64,000 bases of DNA, taken from Pirellulales bacterium (lineage in GTDB: Bacteria > Planctomycetota > Planctomycetia > Pirellulales > JADZDJ01). The notes below the pieces were generated by a model, which was given only the letters and a program-made list of their open reading frames with translations, had not been told where the DNA came from and made no database searches. The stretch is taken from NCBI GenBank assembly GCA_035656635.1, contig DASRSD010000110.1, positions 686 through 64,685 on the forward strand, given 5' to 3'. Both the position numbers and the translations under genes were made by a program. Shown in pieces: positions 6,960 to 23,731 of this stretch. The first letter of the stretch is position 1; each line of letters opens with the position of its first letter.

Positions 6960-7943
6960 ATGTCTGTAGCGCCCATCGCCCATCCGCGGATGCCAGCGGA
7001 GCCCTTGCCGGAAAATATTCGCAGCACGCAGCCGGGGGGTGGGTTTTGTTATTCGCTGGAAATGGCCTGGGGTCGCTGGCGGCGCTGGTATTTGCGAACT
7101 TTTTGGCCGGGATATGTGCGGCGAATGGCGGCCGCGCGAATTGGTGAGCCCGCCGGCTGCCCACACGAGATTGTCGATTCGCGCGATCTGAAATTCTGCC
7201 GCAATTTGACGGATTGCCATTGGCGGCCGGAGGATGATCGGTTTCGCTGGCGCGAAAAAATTCCGCTGGCACGCTGGGGACTGGCCGAAGTGCAAATCAT
7301 GGGCTGGCCCCTCCTGGCGCTGACCGTGGCCTTGGTGGTGGGCTGGAGAAATACATCGGGAACCACGAGCGCGCTGTGCTTGTTGGCGGCGGTGGTTAGC
7401 GGGGCGGTGCTGGTGCTGGTTGTGTCGTTCTTTCGCGATCCGCCGCGGCGCATTCCGCAAGAGCCAGGCCTGCTGGTTTCCCCGGCTGATGGTAATGTGG
7501 TGGAAGTGGCGCAGCTGGCACACGATGAATTTGTCGGAGGGCCGGCGGTGCGGATCGCTATTTTTCTCACGCTGTTCAACGTTCACGTGAATCGCATGCC
7601 GTGCCGGGCCAAGGCGATTCGATTAAAGTATTCGCCCGGCAAGTTTTTGCACGCCGATCATCCGCTGGCCAGCACGCAAAACGAAAGCATGTGGATTGGC
7701 CTGGAGCAGGACGAAGCACCCTATCGCCGCCTGGTATGCCGGCAGGTTTCCGGGATGGTGGCCCGCCGCATTGTGAACGATTTAAGGCCGGGAGAGGTGT
7801 TGGAACGGGGCGCGAAATTTGGGATGATTAAGTTTGGCTCGCGAACCGAGTTGATTGTGCCGGCCGAAGGTTTCGAGCCGCAAGTTCGCTTGGGACAATG
7901 GATCAAAGCCGGCCGTGACGTGGTCGGGAAATACAGCAGCTAG
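6960..7943 (+). CDS. psd: phosphatidylserine decarboxylase family proenzyme with a long N-terminal extension
   Basis: The C-terminal half has the FGMIKFGSRTELIVP self-cleavage (G-S) region and TM helices. It lies directly upstream of pssA. The start is uncertain (about 110 extra N-terminal residues). Confidence 0.85.
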   Translation: MSVAPIAHPRMPAEPLPENIRSTQPGGGFCYSLEMAWGRWRRWYLRTFWPGYVRRMAAARIGEPAGCPHEIVDSRDLKFCRNLTDCHWRPEDDRFRWREKIPLARWGLAEVQIMGWPLLALTVALVVGWRNTSGTTSALCLLAAVVSGAVLVLVVSFFRDPPRRIPQEPGLLVSPADGNVVEVAQLAHDEFVGGPAVRIAIFLTLFNVHVNRMPCRAKAIRLKYSPGKFLHADHPLASTQNESMWIGLEQDEAPYRRLVCRQVSGMVARRIVNDLRPGEVLERGAKFGMIKFGSRTELIVPAEGFEPQVRLGQWIKAGRDVVGKYSS

Positions 7944-8048
7944 CCATTAGCGGCTAGCGATTAGCGGTTACAACGAATTGACATCGCTTGCCGTTGCCGC
8001 CCGCCCGAATTGCTAATCGGCTAGCCGCTAATCGCTAATTGCTTTAAC

Positions 8049-8927
8049 ATGAAAAAACTTCGCACCGTAGCCGTGTTGCCAACCATGTTCACGCTGGGGA
8101 ACCTGCTGTGCGGGTTCTTTGCGATTGTGGTGGCGTCGCGCGTGGGGGCAGGCACGCTGGATCGGATTCCGCCGGCCCCGCAAATTGAAATTTCCAATCC
8201 GGCCAAGGTGTTCGGCGCGTTCGATCCGACGAACCCCACGCACAACATTGTGTTCAGCGCATGGTTGATTTTTGTGGCGATGATTTTCGATGCGCTGGAT
8301 GGCCACGTGGCCCGACTGGTGAAAATTACCAGCGATTTCGGCGCGCAGTTGGACAGCCTGTGCGATTTAGTGACGTTTGGCGTGGCGCCGGCGTTTTTAA
8401 TGGTGAAAATGTGTCCTGATTTCACCTTTTTTTACCACGACGAAATGTGGATTATCGCGGCGGCATTTGTGGCCTGTGCGGCCATGCGGCTGGCGCGGTT
8501 CAATGCGGAAACGGAGCAAGAGGACGATCATTTATCGTTCATCGGCTTGCCCACGCCCGCCGCCGCCGGGTCGATTGCCAGCTTCGCCATTTTGTTTTAC
8601 ACGTTGCGGCTGGAAAGCAATCATTTGCCGTACGCTCAGGATATCGATTGGTACATGCGGCGGTTTTTGCCACTGTTCACGCTGATGCTGAGCGCGCTGA
8701 TGGTGTCGCGCATTCCGTACCCGCACGTGGTGAATCAGTTGCTGAATGGGCAGCGCAGCCTGGGGCACATTGTGGCGCTGCTGTTTTCGCTGGTGGTGAT
8801 CATTGCCATCCGCGGCTACAGCGTGCCGATTATATGTTCGATCTTCGTTCTTGGCCCGCCGCTGCGTTACGCCTGGCAGCGGTGGCGCAATCGGGCCCAG
8901 GAGCAAGAAAGCGAATCGCTGTTCTAG
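8049..8927 (+). CDS. pssA: CDP-diacylglycerol--serine O-phosphatidyltransferase
   Basis: CDP-alcohol phosphatidyltransferase motif DALDGHVARL....FGAQLDSLCDLVTFGVAP, multi-TM, paired with psd. Confidence 0.9.
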   Translation: MKKLRTVAVLPTMFTLGNLLCGFFAIVVASRVGAGTLDRIPPAPQIEISNPAKVFGAFDPTNPTHNIVFSAWLIFVAMIFDALDGHVARLVKITSDFGAQLDSLCDLVTFGVAPAFLMVKMCPDFTFFYHDEMWIIAAAFVACAAMRLARFNAETEQEDDHLSFIGLPTPAAAGSIASFAILFYTLRLESNHLPYAQDIDWYMRRFLPLFTLMLSALMVSRIPYPHVVNQLLNGQRSLGHIVALLFSLVVIIAIRGYSVPIICSIFVLGPPLRYAWQRWRNRAQEQESESLF

Positions 8928-9714: not shown

Positions 9715-10608
9715 ATGTCGCACCAAACACTCACCTATTTGAAGCAACGATTCCAGCAAGTCGGCCTCAAGCTGCAATCGCGGCACGGTCAGAATTTTTT
9801 GATCGATTTGAATTTACTGCGCATTCTGGCCGATTCGGCGCAACTTTCGCCCCACGACGTGGTGCTGGAAGTGGGCACCGGCGTGGGATCGCTCACGGCC
9901 TTGGTGGCGCCACAGGTAGCGCACTTGGTAACCGTGGAAATCGATCCGCGCTTGGCACAACTGGCCAGCGAAGAATTGCTGTCGCATGCGAACATCACCC
10001 TGCTGCAAATGGATGCCTTGCGGCGCAAGCACGAAATTGATTCGCGGGTGCTGGGTGCCCTGCGGCAACATTTGGCGGCAGAGCCGCAGCGGAACTTTAA
10101 ACTGGTCGCGAACTTGCCGTATGGCGTGGCCACTCCGCTGATTTCCAATCTGCTCGAATTGGAATGGCCGCCGGTTTCGATGACCATCACCATTCAAAAA
10201 GAGTTGGCCGATCGGCTGGCAGCGCAACCCCACACGAAAGATTATGGAGCGATTAGCGTGTGGGTGCAGTGCCAATGCCGCGTGGAAATTTTGCGCGTGA
10301 TGCCGCCGACCGTGTTTTGGCCGCGGCCCAAGGTGCACTCGGCAATTGTTCACATCACGCTGGAGCCGGAGCGGCGCAGCGCGATTCCGGACCGGCGGTT
10401 TTTTCACGAATTTGTGCGCAAGCTGTTTCTGCACCGCCGGAAGTTTTTACGGGGCGTGCTGGTGGCGACGTACAAAGATCGGCTCGACAAGCCGGCGATC
10501 GATCGCGTTTTGTCGGAATTGCAATTTGGCGGAAACGCCCGGGCGGAGGAATTAAGCGTGGAACAAATGCTGGCCCTGTGCGAGAAATTCCGCCAGATCC
10601 AGTTGTGA
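9715..10608 (+). CDS. rsmA: 16S rRNA (adenine1518/1519-N6)-dimethyltransferase
   Basis: GQNFLID motif, SAM-binding VLEVGTGVGSLT, NLPYGVATPL. The start was trimmed from the GTG at 9670 to the ATG at 9715. Confidence 0.93.
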   Translation: MSHQTLTYLKQRFQQVGLKLQSRHGQNFLIDLNLLRILADSAQLSPHDVVLEVGTGVGSLTALVAPQVAHLVTVEIDPRLAQLASEELLSHANITLLQMDALRRKHEIDSRVLGALRQHLAAEPQRNFKLVANLPYGVATPLISNLLELEWPPVSMTITIQKELADRLAAQPHTKDYGAISVWVQCQCRVEILRVMPPTVFWPRPKVHSAIVHITLEPERRSAIPDRRFFHEFVRKLFLHRRKFLRGVLVATYKDRLDKPAIDRVLSELQFGGNARAEELSVEQMLALCEKFRQIQL

Positions 10609-10615
10609 ATTTCAG

Positions 10616-10794
10616 ACCGTGCCGCGCGTATCATTCCCGATGGCTGGGGTAGTGACGCATTTTGAAGTGAACTGCATTGGGTGGCCGGGGTCGAGTGCCG
10701 CCGAGCCCCCGGAATGCTGCCCGCTGGGGTCTCCCTTCGGTCGACCCCAGCCACCCTGCCGGACTGCGCCGCGCGTATCATTCCCGCCGGCTGG
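10616..10794. repeat. 78-bp GC-rich nested palindromic element (10679-10756) flanked by 32-bp direct repeats (10616-10647, 10763-10794)
   Basis: Termini GGGTGGCCGGGGTCGA...TCGACCCCAGCCACCC with an inner GAGCCCCC...GGGGTCTC. The flanking 32-mers match at 28/32. Related copies lie at 23754-23830 and 39219-39296. Confidence 0.85.
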
Positions 10795-10960
10795 CATTCG
10801 CTTGCCACAAGCGGAATAGGCTGATAAATTGAAGCGACCGTAGCTTGGCGGGGGTAGCCGGTGGCAGCCGAGGCTTTTCTGCACTTGGCACCCTTTACCG
10901 TGGTGCATGGCAAATTGATTTCAGGCTGGTTTCATCTTCTCCGCGGAGTGCAATCGCATC

Positions 10961-12760
10961 ATGAGACGAATGCTTAGCGCTGCGCCAGGTTGGTGGCAGA
11001 CGATGGTGTTGCTGTGGTGCGCCGCGGCGCCCCAGATTGTGTTTGCGGCGGACGGCAGCTTGGCCGATTTGATTGATAAAGTGGAGCCTTCCATCGTGCG
11101 CATCGACGTGACGATGGAGCAAGGCAAAGGCGTAGGGAGCGGATACGTGGTGCTGGCCGACGGCGTGTTGGCAACCAACTACCACGTGATTGCCGGCGCC
11201 AGTGAAGCGATGGCCACATTCAAGAACGGGCAACAAGCCAAGGTGGTGGGGACCCTGCTGCTGGATGAGAAGCGCGACATCGCCATTTTGAAAATCGACA
11301 AGCAATCGCTCCCTGTCCTGCCGCTGGCCGATGTGTTGCCCCGGCAGGGAGATTCGGTGGCGGCGTTTGGCGCGCCGGTGGGGCTGTCGTTTTCTGCGAG
11401 CGATGGCATTGTCAGCGCCGTTCGCAGCGGCAAGGAAATTTCCGACGAGGAGGAAATTCCCGGCACCTGGATTCAAACCACGGCCCCCATTTCGCCGGGC
11501 AATAGCGGCGGCCCGCTGGTGAATCGCGAAGGAAAAGTTGTGGCCATGAACACCATGGTGCTGCTCATCGGGCAGAATTTGAATTTTGCGATTTCGTCGC
11601 TCGACGTGGCCGATGCGCTGGAAAAAGCCAAGAATAAGCCCGTATCCGCACTGGCCGACGTGGCCGCCAAAGCCAAGCCGAAAACGCACAAGCGGGCGAA
11701 ATCAAAAAATGAGCTGGCGGCCAAAGATATTCCGGCCGCACAGGTCGATGCGTTCATCAACGCCGGCCAAAAGCATTATAAAGACGCCATCGTCAACGCA
11801 CGCACGAAACTGCGCGAAGCCAACGAAAAGTTGCGGGCCATGAAAAGCGGCACCACGAACAGTCCGTTCGCGCTGCAGGCGAAAGAGCAAGGAGCCGACT
11901 ATTTAATTAACAATGTTCGCGGTCAAAACTTTTATTTGTTTCCCGATTCGGACACAAAGCAAAAGTGCATTGACGAGCAGCAAAAGGTGGCCGGCAAATG
12001 CGACGATTTGGTCAAGAAGCTGGAAGAGCCGCAGCAAGGCATGTTGAACTACCTGAAAAATGCCGGTCCCGAGTTGTCGCTGCAGACCGTGGGAGACGTG
12101 GGCTTTGTTCCCGAGTTAATGGTGGGGCTGATTGACGATGAAGACGAATTCCAAACCGTGTTGGGGCGCATTCCCGTGACGGTTCGCGGCTTGAATACCC
12201 ATAAGCTGGCGATTGGCTCCAAGCTGGACGGCCGGGTGATGTACGTGGCCGACACCGAAACGTACGCGCTGAAATCGACCGAGAACCGCGTGAATGTGTT
12301 CGTGCTGCGCGAGGTGCCCGACGAAGTTCTGTTGGCGCATTTGAAGCCGACGGGCTCTGCTGCGACGGGTTCGGCCAGCACGGCAACCGGTTCCGCAAGC
12401 ACGGCGACGGCTAAAACACCGGCGACTGGCAATTCGGCCACGGCAGCCGGCGGTTTATCAACTGGTGGTTCAGCAGCCGGTGGTTCATCCAGCGCGGCCA
12501 GCGCTACGCCGTCGACGGTCTCTGACTCGACGAGCACAAGCTCCAAAACCGACGCCGGTTCTGCCGCAAAGACGGACGCCAAGATCGACGATTTTCGCAT
12601 GTGGGTCGACAAGACCGGCAAGTTCAAAATAGAAGCGATGTTCGTTGCCAGAGTGGACGACAAAGTGGTGCTGAAGCGCCGCAGCGGCGATATTCTTACC
12701 GTGCCCGCGGCGTCGCTGTCGCAGGCTGACCAAGATTTCTTGAAGGACAAAGCCAAGTAG
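10961..12760 (+). CDS. secreted trypsin-like (S1C/HtrA-type) serine protease with Ser/Thr/Ala-rich linker and C-terminal SHD1 domain
   Basis: Signal peptide, catalytic-region motifs LATNYHVI, DIAILKI and PGNSGGPLVN, and a C-terminal WVDKTGKFKIEAMFV..DDKVVLKRRSGDILTVP..LSQADQDFL (SLA1 homology domain 1 pattern). Confidence 0.85.
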   Translation: MRRMLSAAPGWWQTMVLLWCAAAPQIVFAADGSLADLIDKVEPSIVRIDVTMEQGKGVGSGYVVLADGVLATNYHVIAGASEAMATFKNGQQAKVVGTLLLDEKRDIAILKIDKQSLPVLPLADVLPRQGDSVAAFGAPVGLSFSASDGIVSAVRSGKEISDEEEIPGTWIQTTAPISPGNSGGPLVNREGKVVAMNTMVLLIGQNLNFAISSLDVADALEKAKNKPVSALADVAAKAKPKTHKRAKSKNELAAKDIPAAQVDAFINAGQKHYKDAIVNARTKLREANEKLRAMKSGTTNSPFALQAKEQGADYLINNVRGQNFYLFPDSDTKQKCIDEQQKVAGKCDDLVKKLEEPQQGMLNYLKNAGPELSLQTVGDVGFVPELMVGLIDDEDEFQTVLGRIPVTVRGLNTHKLAIGSKLDGRVMYVADTETYALKSTENRVNVFVLREVPDEVLLAHLKPTGSAATGSASTATGSASTATAKTPATGNSATAAGGLSTGGSAAGGSSSAASATPSTVSDSTSTSSKTDAGSAAKTDAKIDDFRMWVDKTGKFKIEAMFVARVDDKVVLKRRSGDILTVPAASLSQADQDFLKDKAK

Positions 12761-12905
12761 CTACGCAGCCAAGCCAGTTCTGCTACCGTTGCGCGTGGGC
12801 GGCACTTGCTTCCCGCCACAGGCGCGGGTAATCTGGTCGGGAACGTCGGCCGCTTGGCAGGCAAGTGCTTGGGGCTCGACGTTTGCTTTGTCCTGGAGCC
12901 GCCGA

Positions 12906-13136
12906 ATGAAATTCATCGAGATGCGCGGAGTTCAGCTAATGCATTTGCTGGGCCCCGAAGAAATAAAGCCGGAAGAGCTGCGCAAAGCCGGGCTAACCGA
13001 CAAGTGCCTGGTGCGCGTCAATTTACAGGGGGATATCGAAGTCCGCCGCCGCAGCAGTTGGGATGTTATCGGCGGCTTGTTGGGAGATTTCGAACACCGC
13101 ATCAAGCAGGAAACGGGGCTCGATTGGGCGTCTTAA
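12906..13136 (+). CDS. small hypothetical protein
   Basis: 76 aa from the ATG at 12906 (MKFIEMRGVQLMHLL...). The upstream part of the tracked ORF looks non-coding. Confidence 0.5.
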   Translation: MKFIEMRGVQLMHLLGPEEIKPEELRKAGLTDKCLVRVNLQGDIEVRRRSSWDVIGGLLGDFEHRIKQETGLDWAS

Positions 13137-13558
13137 AGCGGGACGCTGTCAAATGCGCTATCGGGCGCATGATTACCGTTGCATTTTCCCTAATTTCGCG
13201 CTGCGAAAATAGCAAAGCTCTTCTGCCACTGGGTTTGTGAAAGTGTATCAGTTTGGCGGAGCGTGCTTTGCCGTTTCCAAATAAACGTAAAAATGAGCCT
13301 GTTTGGTCGCTGGTCCGGTTTGTGCGCGCCGCCATGGCATGGTAAGCTGTGGCAACGCGTGTTTCTAGCTGGCCGGCGTCAACCCAGAACTTACCTACCT
13401 ACCGCTGGGCCGGCATTGGTTCCTGCAATACTGAAGAGGTCGATTGCCACGACCGCTTTGGATTCCGCGATTAGGAAAAATAGGGCGACTTGGAAGCCGC
13501 AGTCGAACCGGGGCTGTTTGGCATCGCCAAGTGATTTGGCCTCCGGAGATTTTTCACC

Positions 13559-16500
13559 GTGCATCTTGACCATTTGCCTGGATCGTTTTTTGGCCCGTCG
13601 AATTTGGTCGATTTATTGCGCCATCGGGCGGCACATCAATCGGCCGACACCGCCTTCATGTATTTAGTGGACGGCGAGACCGACGAAATCGCTTGGAGTT
13701 ATGCCGAATTGGATCGGCGCGTGCGGGCCATTGCCGCCTGGCTGCAATCGCTGGGTTTGCAAGGAGAACGGGCGTTGTTGCTGTATCCGGCCGGGCTCGA
13801 TTTTATCGCAGCTTTTTTTGGGTGCGTGTACGCCGGCGTGGTGGCGGTGCCGGCTTATCCGCCGCGAAAAAACCGCTCGCTGGAGCGCATCGAAGCCATT
13901 GCCGACGATGCCGAAGCCAAAGTCGCCTTGACCACGCAAGAAGTGCTGGGCCGCGTGCAAGGGGTGCTCAGCGAGAATCCTGGCTTAAATTCGCTCCATT
14001 GGGGCGCGACCGATCAATTTCCCGCCGGCATGGAGCGTGATTGGCGCCATCCCGATGTGCACGGCGATACTTTGGCGTTTTTGCAATACACCTCCGGCTC
14101 TACCGGCACTCCCAAAGGCGTGATGCTCAGCCATGCGAATTTGATTCACAACTCGGCGCTCATTTGCCATGCGTTCGAGCATACACGCAGCGGCGTCGGC
14201 GTATTCTGGCTGCCCAGCTACCACGATATGGGCCTGATCGGCGGGATTTTGCAGCCCATGTATTGCGGCCGGCCGAACGTGCTGATGTCGCCCATGTCGT
14301 TTTTGCAAAAACCGTTGCGTTGGATGCGGGCCATCACGCGCTACAAAGGCACGGTCAGCGGCGGGCCGAACTTTGCGTATGATTTGTGCCTGAAGCGCAT
14401 TACGCCGGAAGAACGCGAAACGCTCGATCTCAGCACCTGGTCGCTGGCGTTCAACGGCGCCGAGCCGATCCGCCCGGAAACCCTGGCCGATTTCACGCGC
14501 ACCTTCGCTCCCTGCGGATTCCGCCCGGAAGCGTTTTATCCGTGTTACGGCTTGGCCGAGGCCACCTTGATGGTCACCGGGGGGTTCAAAACGTCTGTGC
14601 CGTTAATTCGCTCGTTTGATGCGAAATCGATCGAGAACAATCAGGCGGTCGATGTCCTGTCCGATGAAGAAGGCGTGCGCACCATCGTCGGCTGCGGGAC
14701 AGCGCTGCTGGATCAGGAAATTGTCATTGTCGATCCCGAGGCCATGGTTCGCCTGCCCGACAGGCGCGTGGGCGAAATTTGGGTGGCCGGCCCCAGCGTG
14801 GCGCAAGGTTATTGGCGGCGGGCGGAAGAATCGGCCAATATGTTTCGCGCTTATTTGAAAGATAGCGATCGCGGACCATACCTGCGCACCGGCGACTTGG
14901 GCTTCGTTTGCGACGGGGAGCTGTTTGTGGCCGGGCGGTTGAAAGATTTAATCATCGTGCATGGCCGCAATCATTATCCGCAAGATATCGAGCAAACCGT
15001 GGAACGGGCCCATCCGCTGTTGCGCTCCGGGGCCAGCGGCGTATTTACGGTGGAAGTGGGAGGCCGGGAACGGCTGGGCGTAGCAGCCGAAATCGAGCGC
15101 GGCCGCAATCGGACCGCGGAAGAGTTGGAAGAAGTGCTGGCCGCCATTCGCCGCGCCGTTTCTGCCGAGCACGAAGTGCCCGTCGATGCCATCCTGCTCA
15201 TCAAAGCCGGCAGCATCCCGAAAACATCCAGCGGCAAAATTCAACGACACGCCTGCCGCAACGGCTTTTTGCGCGGGACCGATTTGGAAGTTGTCGCTCA
15301 ATGGCGCGGTTGGGAAAGCGCAAAGGCCGAGGCATCAGCGGCCGCTTCCGCGGCGTCGATTGCTGCTCCGGTCATTTTGTCGCTCAAGCCGGCGGCGGCC
15401 TCCTCGACCCCGCGCACCGCCGTCGAAGCGCTCTCGGGCACGCCCACCAACGGCCACGGCCCGCGAACCGGCGGCTTGGCCGATCGGCTTCCGCCGGTGT
15501 CGGACGAAACGGCGGCGCTGGTCATGGAGCAAATTGCGCGCGTGGCCAAGGAACGCGCAAAAGGCTTGACGCTCGATTCCAACATTTTGGAAATGAGCAT
15601 GGATTCGCTGGAACGCATGGAAATTGTCGCCGCGCTGGAAGAAACCTTCGGCGGACGCTTTCCGGAGGAGGTGCTGCCCGACATGGTTTTGGTGCGCGAC
15701 GTGGTCGCCGCCGTGGAAAAACATTTGGGGAAAACGCCCCGTAAGCGGCCAGTGGCGCTCGCTTCGGAAATTCCCGCCGCGTATTACAACATCGATCAAT
15801 TTCCCGAATGCTTGGCGCTGGAGCAGCAAAGGAATTTGCTGGAAAGCACCGGCGTCATGAACCCATTCTTCAAGGTTCACGAGCGGGTCATTGACGATAC
15901 CACCGTGATCAACGGCCGCGAGCTCATTAGCTGGTCCAGCTACAATTACCTCGGCATGTCGGGCGATCCGGCGGTGATTGCCGCCGCCAAGGAATCGTTG
16001 GATCGCTACGGCACCAGCGTTTCGGCCAGCCGGCTGGTTTCGGGCGAAAAAACCATTCACCGCCAACTGGAGCAGGCCCTTATCGATTTATTGGGCGTGG
16101 AAGATGCCATTACATTCGTGTGCGGCCACTCCACCAACGAAACAACCATCGGCCACATGTTCGGCCCGGGCGATTTAATTCTGCACGATGCGCTGGCCCA
16201 CAACAGCATTATTCAAGGCGCTATTTTAAGCGGGGCGCGCCGCCGGCCCTTCCCGCACAACGATTGGCAAACGCTGGATCAATTGCTGGGCGAGCTGCGG
16301 CACGAATACCGCCGGGTGCTGATTGCCATTGAGGGCATTTACAGCATGGACGGCGATTATCCCGATCTCCCGCGGTTCATCGAAATTAAAAAGCGGCATA
16401 AAGCCCTGTTGTACATTGACGAAGCCCATTCGCTGGGCGTGATGGGCTTGCACGGCCGAGGCATTGGCGAGCATTTTGATGTGGAGCCCAGCGACGTCGA

Positions 16501-17032
16501 TTTTTGGATGGGCACCATGAGCAAGGGGCTCGGCAGTTCCGGCGGATACATTGCCGGCAAGAAATCGCTGGTGCAGTATATGAAGTACACGGCGCCGGGC
16601 TTCGTGTTCGCCAACGGATTGCCGCCGGTGATTGCCGCCGCCGCGCTGACTGCCCTGCGCGTGCTGGAGGAAGATCCGGAACGGGTCGCTCGGCTGTCGG
16701 CCAACAGCAAGCTGTTTTTGTCGCTAGCCAAAAGCCGCGGCCTGAATACCGGCCGCAGCAAAGATTCGGCCGTGGTGCCGGTCATTTTGGGCAACTCGCT
16801 GCATGCGCTGCAGTTGTCGGAGGCGATGTTCAAACGGGGCATTAACGTACAGCCGATTCTGCACCCGGCCGTGGAGGAAAGCGCGGCCCGGCTAAGATTT
16901 TTCGTCACGGCCAAGCACACCGAGGAGCAAATACGCAAAACCGTGGATGCGGTCACCGAGGAATTGAAGAAAATCGATCCTTCCCATCTGCGGCATCACG
17001 GCGCGGCGGAATCGCAGCGCCTGAAAATTTGA
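13559..17032 (+). CDS. tri-domain fatty acyl-AMP ligase / acyl carrier protein / alpha-oxoamine synthase (serine palmitoyltransferase-like) fusion
   Basis: FAAL part: LQYTSGSTGTPKGVMLSH, GDLGF..GELFVAGRLKDLIIVHGRNHYPQDIE, SSGKIQR. ACP part: LEMSMDSLERMEIV, with the Ser codon at 15605-15607. PLP part: SYNYLGMSGDP, IDEAHSLGVMG, TMSKGLGSSGGY, with the Lys codon at 16523-16525. Confidence 0.9.
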   Translation: MHLDHLPGSFFGPSNLVDLLRHRAAHQSADTAFMYLVDGETDEIAWSYAELDRRVRAIAAWLQSLGLQGERALLLYPAGLDFIAAFFGCVYAGVVAVPAYPPRKNRSLERIEAIADDAEAKVALTTQEVLGRVQGVLSENPGLNSLHWGATDQFPAGMERDWRHPDVHGDTLAFLQYTSGSTGTPKGVMLSHANLIHNSALICHAFEHTRSGVGVFWLPSYHDMGLIGGILQPMYCGRPNVLMSPMSFLQKPLRWMRAITRYKGTVSGGPNFAYDLCLKRITPEERETLDLSTWSLAFNGAEPIRPETLADFTRTFAPCGFRPEAFYPCYGLAEATLMVTGGFKTSVPLIRSFDAKSIENNQAVDVLSDEEGVRTIVGCGTALLDQEIVIVDPEAMVRLPDRRVGEIWVAGPSVAQGYWRRAEESANMFRAYLKDSDRGPYLRTGDLGFVCDGELFVAGRLKDLIIVHGRNHYPQDIEQTVERAHPLLRSGASGVFTVEVGGRERLGVAAEIERGRNRTAEELEEVLAAIRRAVSAEHEVPVDAILLIKAGSIPKTSSGKIQRHACRNGFLRGTDLEVVAQWRGWESAKAEASAAASAASIAAPVILSLKPAAASSTPRTAVEALSGTPTNGHGPRTGGLADRLPPVSDETAALVMEQIARVAKERAKGLTLDSNILEMSMDSLERMEIVAALEETFGGRFPEEVLPDMVLVRDVVAAVEKHLGKTPRKRPVALASEIPAAYYNIDQFPECLALEQQRNLLESTGVMNPFFKVHERVIDDTTVINGRELISWSSYNYLGMSGDPAVIAAAKESLDRYGTSVSASRLVSGEKTIHRQLEQALIDLLGVEDAITFVCGHSTNETTIGHMFGPGDLILHDALAHNSIIQGAILSGARRRPFPHNDWQTLDQLLGELRHEYRRVLIAIEGIYSMDGDYPDLPRFIEIKKRHKALLYIDEAHSLGVMGLHGRGIGEHFDVEPSDVDFWMGTMSKGLGSSGGYIAGKKSLVQYMKYTAPGFVFANGLPPVIAAAALTALRVLEEDPERVARLSANSKLFLSLAKSRGLNTGRSKDSAVVPVILGNSLHALQLSEAMFKRGINVQPILHPAVEESAARLRFFVTAKHTEEQIRKTVDAVTEELKKIDPSHLRHHGAAESQRLKI

Positions 17033-17149
17033 CCGACGCTCGAGGTCGGTTCGTAATTATAATGACATTGCAAATCCGCAAGCGGATGGATTTCGAGGCG
17101 ATTCTTCCCATTTGAATCCCGATCCCTAACCTGCCCCTGGCCGTCCCCA

Positions 17150-17608
17150 GTGTCCAACGTCACGCTCACTCATCGCCTGATTCTGCCGGTCGATTCCAAT
17201 CATCACGGCACGCTATACGCCGGCTCGCTGATGCGGATTGCTTTGGAAGCGGCCTATGGCACGGCATTTCGATTTATTGGTGACGACGCCAACCTGCTGC
17301 TGCGCCGCGTGCTTAGCATCGAATGCTACAAGCCGGTGCCGGTGGGCTCCTTCGTGGAAATTCGCGGAGTGATTTTGCATGTCACCCGGGCGTATTTGGT
17401 CACCGGGCTCATCGGCGCCGCGCTGCCGGGGCAAAGCGGTCCTTGGATGGATGCCCTGTTCGGCTTTGCCCAAGTGGACGACGACGGCCGAGCCACGGAA
17501 TTTCCCGGCGATTTAACCGTTTCCGCGCCGGCCGCCGAATGGCGCAAGCTTCAAGAGCGCATGAAAAAGCTGCTGCGAATTCGCGGTCGCAACGGCGGCG
17601 AAAAATAG
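17150..17608 (+). CDS. hotdog-fold acyl-CoA/acyl-ACP thioesterase
   Basis: 152 aa, GTG start. VDSNHHGTLYAGSLMRIALEAAY is typical of 4HBT/Acot-type hotdog thioesterases. Confidence 0.7.
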   Translation: MSNVTLTHRLILPVDSNHHGTLYAGSLMRIALEAAYGTAFRFIGDDANLLLRRVLSIECYKPVPVGSFVEIRGVILHVTRAYLVTGLIGAALPGQSGPWMDALFGFAQVDDDGRATEFPGDLTVSAPAAEWRKLQERMKKLLRIRGRNGGEK

Positions 17609-17701
17609 CGCGATATGAATGGGGAATGGGGAGTGTGGAGTGCGGGCTGCGGAACGTTAGGCGCGCAGCGATGACCGATATAATGACGAGGCATCGATTC
17701 C

Positions 17702-18064
17702 ATGGCCGATCTCATTTTTAAACCGACCGTCATCGAGGCTGCCGGCAACAAGCCCAAGCTCATCGAGGAATTTTTCGGCCGGGTGAATTCGCAAACGGAA
17801 GCCCTAAGCGTGGCCCGCATGAATAGCCCGCCCGGCTGGGTCGAGCCGGGCCAAACGCCCGATTTCGACGAATATACCGTGGTGTTGCGCGGACTGCTGC
17901 GGGTAACTACTCGGGAAAAAGCCTTCGATGTGCGCGCCGGGCAGGCCATTCTGGCGCCGCGCGGTCAGTGGGTGCAATACAGCACGCCGGAGGCCGAAGG
18001 GGCCGAATACATTGCGGTGTGCTTGCCGGCATTCTCGCCGCAAACCGTTCACCGCGATGGCTAG
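17702..18064 (+). CDS. cupin domain protein
   Basis: 120 aa with a small beta-barrel pattern (EYTVVLRGLLRV....RAGQAILAPRGQWVQYS). No metal-ligand His cluster is evident. Confidence 0.65.
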   Translation: MADLIFKPTVIEAAGNKPKLIEEFFGRVNSQTEALSVARMNSPPGWVEPGQTPDFDEYTVVLRGLLRVTTREKAFDVRAGQAILAPRGQWVQYSTPEAEGAEYIAVCLPAFSPQTVHRDG

Positions 18065-21107: not shown

Positions 21108-22532
21108 ATGCAGCTAGCTCGCCTAAAGATGTGGCTGTTGATGACGACCGTTGTCCTGGTCGGCATTGGTTCTGCGCGGGCCCAAGATTGGACGCCGTTT
21201 GGCCCCAGCAACGTGCGTTACGATTTGGATTTGTTCGCCCCGCCGGATCTTAGCGCGTACGCAGATTGGCCGCGGCCCAACGAAGGATTTTTCTTCCAGT
21301 ACGATCGGCTGTACTGGTCGATTTCCGGTCCCCGCCGCACGCCGATTGGCCAAGGCGGAACCGCGCTAGGGTTCTTCAACGGACCGCCGCAATTCGATCC
21401 CACCGCCCAAAACCCGAGCCTCATTGTTACCCCTTATGCGAGCACGGCCGATACCGGATTCATCAAGGCCGACCAAGTTTGGGGAAACCGTTATGAATTG
21501 GGCTTCATGGAAGACAACAAGGGCTGGCTCGTCAGCATTATGAATCTGCAAAAGCAAACGCAGCAAATGATTGCCGGCAGCACGGCGGCGACTGTCGGAG
21601 GACTTCCCGCGGGCCAAACCATAATATTCCGCGATCCTCAAGGATTGTTGTTTGGCTTTGTCGACACCAATGGCGACGGCGTCGACGACGACTTGAACAG
21701 TGCAACCCTATTCAATCCGCCGCCGGGCAAATTCCCGGCAGGGACATTCGGCGTGTTTGGCCGACCACTCCCGGCCAATTTGAACTTCAATTTGGCGCCA
21801 CCGGGGAGTATCACTCCGACAACTTACGCCGGCTTCACCGATTTCGGCGATGAAGTGGCCCTGGTGCCGCTATTCAATTCCATTACCGCAATCAATCAAA
21901 CCAGCATGGTTGGCACGGAAATCGATCGCACCTGGCGTTACCCAACCACCAAGTACGGCGTATGGGACGGATTCTTCGGAGTGCGGTGGCTGCTATTTCG
22001 CGACGTGTTCGACGTCCTGGCGATTAACGATACACCCAGTAATGGCACAGTGCCTGTCGGGTTGCCGGGTGCCAGCTTCTGGGACACCACGGTCGACAAC
22101 AACATGTTCGGCCCGCAACTCGGCTTCCGTTACAGCCACGAGGTGGCCCGGTTCAATATTCAATGCGAAGGACGCTTCATGGCGGCCATTAACTTCCAAT
22201 CGACGCACTTGAACGGCGAAATTGCTTCGGCGTTGAATCCGCTGACGGTCGATCCCATTAATGAGCCATTGCTCCTAGTGCGCACGTCATTTGCCAGTTG
22301 GAAGTACGATGAAACATTCTCGCCCGTGGGTGAATTGCGTGTGAACGTGAATTACCAACTCACGAAGGCCGTAGCCATTCAGGCGGGTTATAACGCCATT
22401 TTGGGCGGCGGCATCAGCCGTGCCAGCCGGAGAATCGATTACGTGCTGCCGGCACTACAGATTAATAATTTCAACAAGAACGATGTGTTCTTCACGAACG
22501 GCATCAACCTCGGCATTACCTTCAATCGGTAA
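21108..22532 (+). CDS. putative outer-membrane beta-barrel protein (BBP7-like)
   Basis: Signal peptide ending SARAQ, alternating aromatic/Gly-rich strands, and a C-terminal ...NGINLGITFNR beta-signal-like end. Confidence 0.5.
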   Translation: MQLARLKMWLLMTTVVLVGIGSARAQDWTPFGPSNVRYDLDLFAPPDLSAYADWPRPNEGFFFQYDRLYWSISGPRRTPIGQGGTALGFFNGPPQFDPTAQNPSLIVTPYASTADTGFIKADQVWGNRYELGFMEDNKGWLVSIMNLQKQTQQMIAGSTAATVGGLPAGQTIIFRDPQGLLFGFVDTNGDGVDDDLNSATLFNPPPGKFPAGTFGVFGRPLPANLNFNLAPPGSITPTTYAGFTDFGDEVALVPLFNSITAINQTSMVGTEIDRTWRYPTTKYGVWDGFFGVRWLLFRDVFDVLAINDTPSNGTVPVGLPGASFWDTTVDNNMFGPQLGFRYSHEVARFNIQCEGRFMAAINFQSTHLNGEIASALNPLTVDPINEPLLLVRTSFASWKYDETFSPVGELRVNVNYQLTKAVAIQAGYNAILGGGISRASRRIDYVLPALQINNFNKNDVFFTNGINLGITFNR

Positions 22533-22573: not shown

Positions 22574-22813
22574 TCAGTTTTGGGAGATTTGCAGCTTTCG
22601 CAGCTCGTCGAGTTCACATTGCAGGCGATGCCGCAGAGGGCTTTCCGCACGCAACTCGTCGAGCAATTCTTGAGCCTTGGCAAACGTATCGTCAGTGTAT
22701 GCGCCACCTTTGAACAAAGTGTGCCAGCTCCCGGAAACCTCTTTTTCGGTCAACACTCCTCGAATCCTCTGGGTTGGAAGGAATAGTGCCTGCCCTAGCT
22801 TAATACTAAACAA
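22574..22813 (-). CDS. small hypothetical protein
   Basis: 79-aa ORF convergent with the barrel gene. The C-terminal half is helical. No motif found. Confidence 0.35.
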   Translation of the reverse strand: MFSIKLGQALFLPTQRIRGVLTEKEVSGSWHTLFKGGAYTDDTFAKAQELLDELRAESPLRHRLQCELDELRKLQISQN

Positions 22814-22969
22814 TTCCCAATATTCCGCAAGTGAATTTTATCAGGCAGTTGCCGTAACCTGCGGGTGCTAGCGGCATTGAAAGTTTTACCCCGACGTTTT
22901 TCCCAGCGCGACACAACCGTAAGGCGACCGGGCATCGCAATCTCAGCGAATCTGCACGATAATAGCCGC

Positions 22970-23731
22970 ATGATACCGGCAAAAGTGGCCTTAATTACTG
23001 GCAGTGGCAAGCGTCGCATAGGTTGGCATATTGCGGAGGCATTGGCAAAACGGAATTACGCCATCGCCGTGCATTACCGCAGTTCTGCCACGGAAGCTGC
23101 GGAAACCGTCCGGCATTTGCGCACGCTGAATGTCGAGGCCGAAGCGTTCGGCGCCGATTTGACGGACGAAGAATCGGTTCGCATGCTCACCCAAGCGGTG
23201 CTGGCCAAATTCGGCCGCATCGATGTGCTGGTGAACACCGCCGCCGCCTGGAAAAGCAAGCCGCTGGAAGATGTCACCGCCGCCGATGTACGCGGTTTTT
23301 TGGAAACCAACACGTTGGCAACCTTTTTGTGCTGCCAGCATGTCGGGCTGGCCATGGCGAAACAGGCTGACGGCGGCGCCATTGTCAACTTCGGCGATTG
23401 GGCCACCGTTCGGCCCTATGTGAATTACGCCGCCTATTTTCCGTCCAAGGGCGCTATTCCCGCACTCACTCGGACGATGGCCGTCGAACTGGGAACTCGT
23501 AATCCGCGCGTGCGGGTAAATTGTATTATGCCCGGGCCCGTTTTGCTTCCGCCCGATTTGCCAGCCGCCGAACGAGAGCAAGCCATTCAGGCCACGTTGG
23601 TCAAACACGAAGGCAGCCCGCAGAATATCGTTCAAGCGGTGCTGCACTTTATCGAGAACGATTTTGTCGCCGGCGCGTGCCTGCCGGTCGATGGCGGCCG
23701 CAGCATCTACGCGCTGGACAGCGAAGTGTAA
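22970..23731 (+). CDS. SDR family oxidoreductase (pteridine reductase-like)
   Basis: KVALITGSGKRRIG Rossmann motif, NTAA, and the Y..SK catalytic pair (YFPSKGA). The start was trimmed to the ATG at 22970. Confidence 0.85.
   Translation: MIPAKVALITGSGKRRIGWHIAEALAKRNYAIAVHYRSSATEAAETVRHLRTLNVEAEAFGADLTDEESVRMLTQAVLAKFGRIDVLVNTAAAWKSKPLEDVTAADVRGFLETNTLATFLCCQHVGLAMAKQADGGAIVNFGDWATVRPYVNYAAYFPSKGAIPALTRTMAVELGTRNPRVRVNCIMPGPVLLPPDLPAAEREQAIQATLVKHEGSPQNIVQAVLHFIENDFVAGACLPVDGGRSIYALDSEV

Follow-up and report, generated by a model that had tools for sequence, protein, structure and literature searches.

A fused fatty acyl-AMP ligase, carrier and alpha-oxoamine synthase of Pirellulales, a probable CoA-independent amino-lipid synthase

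The serine palmitoyltransferase (SPT) of Caulobacter and other Proteobacteria, Spt, depends on the carrier protein AcpR, which is supplied by the acyl-acyl carrier protein (ACP) synthetase AasR (PMC9386255, PMC11324152). The rkp-1 region is described as the source of a lipophilic carrier or anchor for the K polysaccharide (PMC3557214), and the pairing of a fatty acyl-AMP ligase (FAAL) with its own ACP is the standard entry of fatty acids into assembly lines (PMC11837247). An architecture that joins an adenylating domain, a carrier domain and a pyridoxal 5′-phosphate (PLP)-dependent alpha-oxoamine synthase (AOS) was catalogued by Milano et al. in 2013 as A-CP-PLP(AOS), with its function given as ‘?’; the examples are Blastopirellula marina A3ZWL3, Microscilla marina A1ZVW4 and Synechococcus PCC 7002 B1XHP8 (PMC3870968). 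In a Black Sea survey, some of the matches to Spt were noted to be portions of longer proteins (PMC11334938), and AOS fusions are absent from the main text of two recent FAAL reviews and of the FAAL pocket paper. Here we describe a gene of this kind at positions 13559–17032 (+ strand) of a 64,000-nucleotide stretch of DNA from a Pirellulales bacterium (contig DASRSD010000110.1, positions 686–64,685; hereafter the window). Homology makes it likely that its product is a self-loading, coenzyme A (CoA)-independent amino-lipid synthase which makes a long-chain 2-amino-3-ketone.

The open reading frame (ORF) starts with GTG, about 10 nt downstream of a GGAG, and translates into 1157 amino acids with no internal stop. 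A promoter and terminator scan gave no promoter-like sites, and terminator-like sites only at chance level. Translation, Pfam domains and homologs of the same architecture confirm an intact gene predicted to encode a FAAL–ACP–AOS fusion; this is as a sequence-only reading of the window had proposed, and the motifs quoted there lie where it had put them. An Ala/Ser/Pro-rich linker, read from the translation (residues 588–639; 15320–15475, + strand), separates the ligase from the carrier. The full three-domain architecture recurs at 63% identity or more in over 120 protein clusters, well above chance, and such proteins are found in hundreds of Pirellulales/Planctomycetota assemblies as well as in Pyrinomonadaceae, Nostoc and Desulfobulbaceae; the closest homologs all come from Pirellulales/Planctomycetota assemblies. 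Gene neighbourhoods were compared across 54 full-length loci from species-representative genomes, and residue conservation across 51 full-length relatives from one-genome-per-species contigs. In one metagenomic relative (locus L101, 7322–9232) only a 636-aa AMP-binding protein is called where the synthase would lie, with a 76-aa ORF after it; frameshift or truncation of the copy, or faulty assembly, may account for this. The architecture is already visible in databases as a large family, and the new part of this work is the functional hypothesis, not the sequence.

The ligase domain spans residues 1–585 (13559–15313, + strand), with Pfam AMP-binding at residues 21–419 (237 bits) and the DIP2-like C-terminal AMP domain at residues 463–572. 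Three segments, YTSGSTGTPKGV (residues 177–188; 14087–14122), GRLKDLIIVHGRNHYPQDIE, which opens with GRLKD (residues 459–478; 14933–14992), and SSGKIQR (residues 557–563; 15227–15247), carry the adenylate-forming core motifs YTSGSTGxPKG (177–188), GRxKD (459–463) and SSGK (557–560), each near-invariant across the 51 relatives. With NCBIfam FAAL models the domain reaches 458, 444 and 441 bits, compared with 187 bits for the long-chain acyl-CoA ligase model PRK06187. The named FAAL cutoffs are missed (PRK05850, 458 against 775; FadD32, 441 against 975), these being whole-protein thresholds of specific subfamilies. The best match among solved structures is 7r7e, listed in a 2025 review as the FAAL domain of the Picosynechococcus PCC 7002 polyketide synthase (PKS) (PMC11837247), with 647 bits and approximately 60% identity over 570 residues. 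FAAL structures span 647 to 271 bits, with FadD32 at about 350, whereas the acyl-CoA ligase FadD13 scores 81. Alignment with E. coli FadD and the Ols FAAL places a FAAL-specific insertion, an element of the N-terminal domain defined elsewhere (PMC8460268), at residues ~340–377 (14576–14689, + strand). It amounts to some 25 residues more than E. coli FadD has after the YGLAE motif, sits as in the Ols FAAL, and is also present in the Nostoc and Pyrinomonadaceae orthologs. Since the FAAL models far outscore the acyl-CoA ligase model, the top structural match is 7r7e and the insertion is present, the ligase domain is, by homology, a FAAL rather than an acyl-CoA ligase.

The carrier and PLP domains both appear functional, judged by their conserved residues. 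The acyl carrier domain (residues 655–706; 15521–15676, + strand; Pfam PP-binding, 33.0 bits against a cutoff of 20.8) contains MDSLERMEIV at residues 681–690, in which Ser683 (codon 15605–15607) is the phosphopantetheine site. The PLP-dependent AOS domain (residues 788–1131; 15920–16951, + strand; Pfam Aminotran_1_2, 168 bits) carries SYNYLGMSGDPAVIAAAKESL at residues 794–814 and TMSKGLGSSGG at residues 986–996. By alignment, its Schiff-base lysine Lys989 (codon 16523–16525), stacking histidine His881 (codon 16199–16201), Asp954/His957 pair (in the motif at 16415–16438) and carboxylate-binding Arg1113 (within 16886–16903) match the corresponding residues of an SPT (2x8u), KBL (1fc4) and SPTLC2. 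Conservation reaches 50 of the 51 relatives at each of Asp682–Ser683, His881, Asp954, His957, Lys989 and Arg1113, so that the carrier serine and PLP lysine picked out in the sequence-only reading have both stood up. The AOS domain also has the SYNYLG motif in common with SPTLC2, the S. wittichii SPT having YNY.

Within the AOS superfamily, the window's domain falls in a well-supported clade that also includes stand-alone AOS genes. Among solved structures it scores 234 bits with S. wittichii SPT, 230 with E. coli KBL, 227.5 with human SPTLC2 and 165–178 with BioF enzymes; the earlier suggestion that SPT is nearer to it than BioF or KBL are is borne out for BioF and marginal for KBL. A profile of the fused clade gives three stand-alone AOS genes 631, 535 and 430 bits and every other reference at most 321, with SPTs at about 299, KBL at about 295, and BioF and ALAS at 193–252. 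A neighbour-joining tree of 38 sequences (Kimura distances, 386 columns, 300 bootstraps) was built from fusions of several phyla, from reference sequences found in PDB alignments, in E. coli K-12 and among annotated plasmid genes, and from the three stand-alone relatives, which tblastn had located in plasmids. It recovers, with 99.7% bootstrap support, a clade that unites the fusions of Planctomycetes, Nostoc, Pyrinomonadaceae and Desulfobulbaceae with the split ACP–AOS of Dapis and with AOS genes that stand alone on a Pseudomonas plasmid (58% identical to the window's domain), on a Sinorhizobium replicon (46–49%) and on an Acidisoma plasmid (~41%). Human SPTLC2 is the sister of this clade in 68% of bootstraps (38.8% identity over the 386 columns), whilst S. 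wittichii SPT joins it with 21% support and S. multivorum SPT is placed elsewhere. Neither BioF nor KBL groups with the clade in any of the 300 bootstraps. In the Limnothrix and Bacteroidetes fusions the AOS domain lies outside the clade, in Limnothrix near S. multivorum SPT, and the FAAL–ACP–AOS fusion therefore arose more than once (at least twice).

Judged by clade membership and gene context, the nearest AOS relatives are predicted RkpG-type genes of PKS/capsule-lipid modules. In Pseudomonas sp. TMW 2.1634 the AOS gene comes after a 2497-aa KS-AT-DH-ER-KR-ACP synthase. The surrounding rkp-1/wcb-like module (locus L087, 1344–19194), on the mobilizable 100-kb plasmid pL21564-1 of this meat isolate, also contains phytanoyl-CoA dioxygenase-family, GNAT and LTA-synthase-type genes, a short-chain dehydrogenase/reductase (SDR) gene and several capsule genes. 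The Sinorhizobium AOS gene (locus L088) is preceded by KS-AT-DH and ER-KR-ACP reading frames, and SDR, sulfatase-type and Capsule_synth (KpsS/C-type) genes come after it; from gene order and domains, not from annotation, the locus would correspond to rkpG/rkpH in an rkp-1 layout (rkpA, G, H, I, J). The Acidisoma AOS gene stands between an SDR gene and a sterol-desaturase-family gene, with glycosyltransferase and capsule genes farther out.

In cyanobacteria the SDR partner accompanies the fused gene itself, directly after it or within ~0.9 kb, in Nostoc minutum, a Nostocaceae metagenome-assembled genome and Limnothrix. The top solved relative of this cyanobacterial SDR is TSC10, the 3-ketodihydrosphingosine reductase (8jat, 114.7 bits; runner-up 100), and its homologs are named 3-dehydrosphinganine reductase by JGI/UniRef. 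The best 120 matches in a database search with the Nostoc SDR are all cyanobacterial; the Sinorhizobium SDR is 42% identical to it. In Limnothrix sp. RL_2_0 (locus L061, 9949–19597) the FAAL–ACP–AOS gene, the TSC10-like SDR gene, a second, stand-alone FAAL gene, a gene for an epimerase/FAD-binding protein and one for a GT4 glycosyltransferase stand one after another; a cyanobacterial sphingoid lipid that is both glycosylated and N-acylated is a candidate product of this cluster. Dapis sp. BLCC M229 has a split system (locus L084, 7020–14427), with a stand-alone FAAL at 9929–11815 and an ACP–AOS protein at 12793–14427; upstream are an SDR and a sulfotransferase gene, a context which hints at a sulfated amino-lipid.

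Architecture, conservation, clade placement and gene contexts are what was directly seen; every catalytic step is inferred from them, as are the length of the chain and the choice of amino acid. Family membership suggests that the FAAL domain would adenylate a free long-chain fatty acid and, as in other FAALs, would pass the acyl group to a phosphopantetheine arm and not to CoA. A phosphopantetheinyl transferase encoded elsewhere would first modify Ser683 of the carrier in the same chain, and this residue would then accept the acyl group. The catalytic residues and the chemistry of the family imply that the PLP domain holds an amino acid as the external aldimine on Lys989, and that a decarboxylative Claisen condensation with the acyl-S-carrier would then give the long-chain 2-amino-3-ketone with loss of CO2. 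This condensation would free the carrier, and turnover would therefore need no thioesterase. Activation, loading in cis and condensation without acyl-CoA had been put forward in the sequence-only reading, and homology supports all three. L-serine is the likeliest amino acid and would lead to a product resembling 3-ketosphinganine, although glycine or alanine may serve instead; serine is favoured because of the TSC10-like partner in cyanobacteria, the affinity to SPTLC2 and the SYNYLG motif.

Several observations weigh against this assignment. No curated NCBIfam AOS model reaches its own cutoff with the AOS domain. The highest raw score is that of bioF (TIGR00858; 340 bits, cutoff 426), followed by KBL (309; 460), the SPT models of CFB type (295; 640), beta-proteobacterial type (283; 500) and alpha-proteobacterial type (254; 670), ALAS (254; 339) and CqsA (140; 428). 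The likeness to SPT and to KBL is nearly equal, both in the PDB scores and with the clade profile, and family-specific signature columns are too few to inform on the amino-acid substrate. The tree is small, was built by neighbour-joining, and is without CqsA, cysteate acyltransferase and S. paucimobilis sequences. TSC10 is not among the best 60 solved relatives of the Sinorhizobium SDR beside the AOS gene, and a role of the RkpH-type SDRs as ketosphinganine reductases was dropped on that account. The 64-kb window contains no TSC10-like reductase or ceramide synthase gene, its annotated parts contain no capsule gene, and genes of these three kinds are likewise missing around the synthase in 47 planctomycete loci. 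The literature searched yielded neither a functional study of any FAAL–AOS/SPT fusion member nor a report of sphingolipids from cultured Pirellulales.

Some of these points also bear on other readings. The chemistry might be the same and the amino acid not serine but glycine, alanine or another, so that the product would be an aminomethyl ketone or a 1-deoxy-sphingoid-type amino-ketone, and might be a secondary metabolite or signal (a pyrazine dimer, or a molecule like the CqsA/LqsA autoinducers) and not a membrane sphingoid base. We give this a modest but real chance: KBL comes close behind SPT in both comparisons, no SPT equivalog cutoff is reached, no reductase is linked to the synthase in planctomycetes, and the sister relation to SPTLC2 holds in only 68% of bootstraps. 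Against it stand the complete lack of a grouping with KBL, a CqsA score far below its cutoff, the pairing of cyanobacterial orthologs with a TSC10-like reductase, and the SYNYLG motif, shared in full with SPTLC2 and in part (YNY) with S. wittichii SPT. Decidedly unlikely, in our view, is a product that serves as lipid anchor or carrier of a surface polysaccharide and not as a bulk membrane lipid, as has been proposed for Sinorhizobium rkp-1 (RkpA/G/H) and Burkholderia wcb. The three closest stand-alone AOS genes do cluster with RkpA-type synthases, Capsule_synth, LTA-synthase/sulfatase-type genes and glycosyltransferases, and the described role of rkp-1 is of just this kind, but type I PKS and KpsS/C-type capsule genes are missing from the annotated neighbours in the window and from the recurrent neighbours of its planctomycete relatives. 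We also know of no identification of the lipid that rkp-1 makes, which counts against the comparison. A BioF with built-in pimelate activation, forming 8-amino-7-oxononanoate in the biotin pathway, is very improbable and is largely refuted. JGI labels many homologs ‘8-amino-7-oxononanoate synthase’ and TIGR00858 gives the top raw score, but that score is below its cutoff, identity to four BioF references is 27–32%, and BioF does not join the clade in any bootstrap, as the sequence-only reading would lead one to expect. No bioA/B/D gene stands beside the synthase in the window or in the relatives examined, biotin synteny was seen in no relative examined, and the FAAL domain has approximately 60% identity to the FAAL that loads a long-chain olefin synthase.

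A further proposal concerns the two genes that follow, which the sequence-only reading had suggested as tailoring or editing partners. Both exist as described: a hotdog-fold ORF of 152 aa lies 117 bp downstream of the synthase (17150–17608, + strand), and a Cupin_2 protein of 120 aa starts 93 bp after it (17702–18064, + strand), the latter with a marginal Pfam score (27.5 bits against a cutoff of 27.2). As a single sequence the hotdog ORF scores 18.9 bits with 4HBT against a cutoff of 20.6, and 4HBT is sub-threshold in seven of eight family members; a profile of eight homologs nonetheless matches the acyl-CoA hydrolases 2gvh, 2eis and 1vpm (E = 1.7e-9 to 8e-9), which identifies it, at the level of homology, as a genuine, divergent acyl-CoA-hydrolase-type protein. 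That synthase, hotdog and cupin form one three-gene unit with dedicated small partners is nevertheless improbable. The shared strand and short gaps favour it, as does the recurrence of the hotdog gene behind four synthases only 56–58% identical to that of the window. It follows the synthase directly, however, in only 8 of the 54 loci (6 of 31 among planctomycete loci whose downstream flank is 3 kb or longer), being missing from the other 25 and from every non-planctomycete locus. A cupin homolog occurs only in two 86%-identical relatives, and neither in a 78%-identical relative nor in other loci. Product release by an AOS needs no thioesterase, a further point against such a unit. The case for partnership is thus weak: the cupin is probably unrelated to the synthase, and the hotdog protein might, speculatively, be a lineage-restricted accessory enzyme that clears a mis-acylated carrier, any role it has being one of editing because the AOS releases its own product.

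The annotated neighbours of the synthase in the window amount to housekeeping genes, the hotdog and cupin genes and a BBP7 porin. Upstream are psd, a CDP-alcohol phosphatidyltransferase gene, ribE, ksgA, an HtrA-type protease gene and a gene for a 75-aa protein; downstream, after the hotdog and cupin genes, come an RF-1-like ORF, a sugar-phosphate-isomerase-type TIM barrel, an ORF of unknown function, the BBP7 porin, a small helical protein and a generic SDR. BBP7, SHD1 and DUF1559 are planctomycete-typical families among them. The sequence-only reading was correct that no ketoreductase or N-acyltransferase gene is adjacent in the window. Neither cerR nor cerS was found near the synthase, and genes for later steps such as keto reduction, N-acylation or head-group addition do not lie close to it. 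In no planctomycete locus examined is a reductase, N-acyltransferase, capsule or biotin gene linked with the synthase. The SDR gene (22865–23731, + strand; 288 aa, classical/generic) lies 5.8 kb downstream; its product is 26% identical to the Sinorhizobium SDR, the gene is not near the synthase in relatives, and as a partner it is probably unrelated. Phosphatidylserine decarboxylase and the CDP-alcohol phosphatidyltransferase, probably a phosphatidylserine synthase, are encoded 4.6–6.6 kb upstream (6960–8927, + strand), an arrangement retained in the 86%- and 78%-identical relatives; ribE, ksgA and the protease gene set these serine-lipid genes apart from the synthase.

The most frequent neighbour is BBP7, in 19 of 54 loci (14 of 31 planctomycete loci with enough flank), followed by ribE/ksgA and the 75-aa protein gene, each in 16 of 54 (the latter in 16 of 39 planctomycete loci with enough flank), and by the small helical protein gene in 8 of 54 (7 of 31). 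The 75-aa protein (12906–13133, + strand) has no Pfam or NCBIfam match and belongs to a family of ~1,944 clusters, all of ~75 aa and seemingly restricted to Pirellulales/Planctomycetota; its usual site is between ksgA and the synthase. It was considered as a dedicated partner and rejected: two of four distant homologs are located elsewhere, and the link is therefore probably inherited gene order. The small helical protein (22577–22834, − strand), conserved as ...LLDELRPESPLRHRL...ELRKL, lies beside the BBP7 beta-barrel gene (21108–22532, + strand). In six divergent loci it is encoded 8–94 bp past the synthase stop, and in at least five of these a convergent BBP7 gene comes next; in the window the pair is 4 kb from the synthase and inverted.

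A far bolder proposal, which we regard as unlikely, would extend these observations to Pirellulales and to further phyla with the fusion: a so far unrecognised class of sphingoid or amino-ketone lipids made by a single-polypeptide, CoA-independent synthase and perhaps bound for the outer membrane, with the FAAL-fused/RkpG-type AOS clade as the closest bacterial sister of the catalytic subunit of eukaryotic SPT. The outer-membrane destination is suggested because the BBP7 beta-barrel gene and the small helical protein gene are its commonest neighbours. If the sister relation to SPTLC2 is true, it bears on the origin of eukaryotic sphingolipid synthesis. If the probable function of the synthase is correct, one gene would provide a portable, CoA-independent route from a free fatty acid and an amino acid to a sphingoid-type base, of use in engineering, and would point to Planctomycetes, and to some members of the Acidobacteria, cyanobacteria and Desulfobulbaceae, as amino-lipid makers; no report of amino-lipids from cultures of those groups was found in the literature searched. 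Metagenomic counts of ‘Spt-like’ genes (for example PMC11334938) would gain a reading for their fused matches. The synthase also ties together the carrier-dependent bacterial Spt, the lipid of rkp-1/wcb capsule regions and FAAL starter modules, which the literature treats apart.

Compared with described proteins, the gene has the same domain order as those catalogued by Milano et al. (PMC3870968), one entry of which comes from the same order of Planctomycetes; in that work the PLP domain was modelled on S. multivorum SPT, and no functional test was included. The first 585 residues align end to end with the FAAL of the Ols FAAL–ACP loading didomain (7r7e), insertion included. No ketosynthase comes after the ACP here, and the PLP enzyme would take the acyl group directly. 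Of the experimentally characterised enzymes in the tree, SPTLC2/LCB2 is the nearest; it shares SYNYLG and all catalytic residues with the synthase, but works with acyl-CoA in a membrane-bound heteromer that also contains SPTLC1 and small subunits, and the window's protein is without curated SPT membership.

The closest functional parallels are two multi-protein systems. In the AasR/AcpR/Spt system of Caulobacter crescentus and of alpha-, beta- and gamma-Proteobacteria, as proposed for the synthase, an ATP-dependent ligase loads a dedicated carrier and a PLP-dependent AOS acts on the acyl-carrier, not on acyl-CoA. There the components are separate proteins encoded in an operon with CerR, whereas the synthase is one chain whose ligase is of FAAL type and has the insertion, and whose AOS domain is not in the sphingomonad Spt clade, as the low bootstrap support with S. 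wittichii Spt indicates. In the RkpA–RkpG–RkpH system of Sinorhizobium rkp-1 and the WcbR-type modules of Burkholderia and Nitrosomonas (PMC3557214, PMC3908369), an ACP-held acyl chain is likewise handed to an AOS, and an SDR comes next. Those modules build the chain with an iterative KS-AT-DH-ER-KR-ACP synthase and have the AOS as a protein of its own, whereas here the FAAL would recruit a ready-made fatty acid and all the parts are fused. By analogy, the synthase is best read as a single-polypeptide counterpart both of AasR/AcpR/Spt and of the PKS-ACP/RkpG/SDR module, with a FAAL in the place of the PKS.

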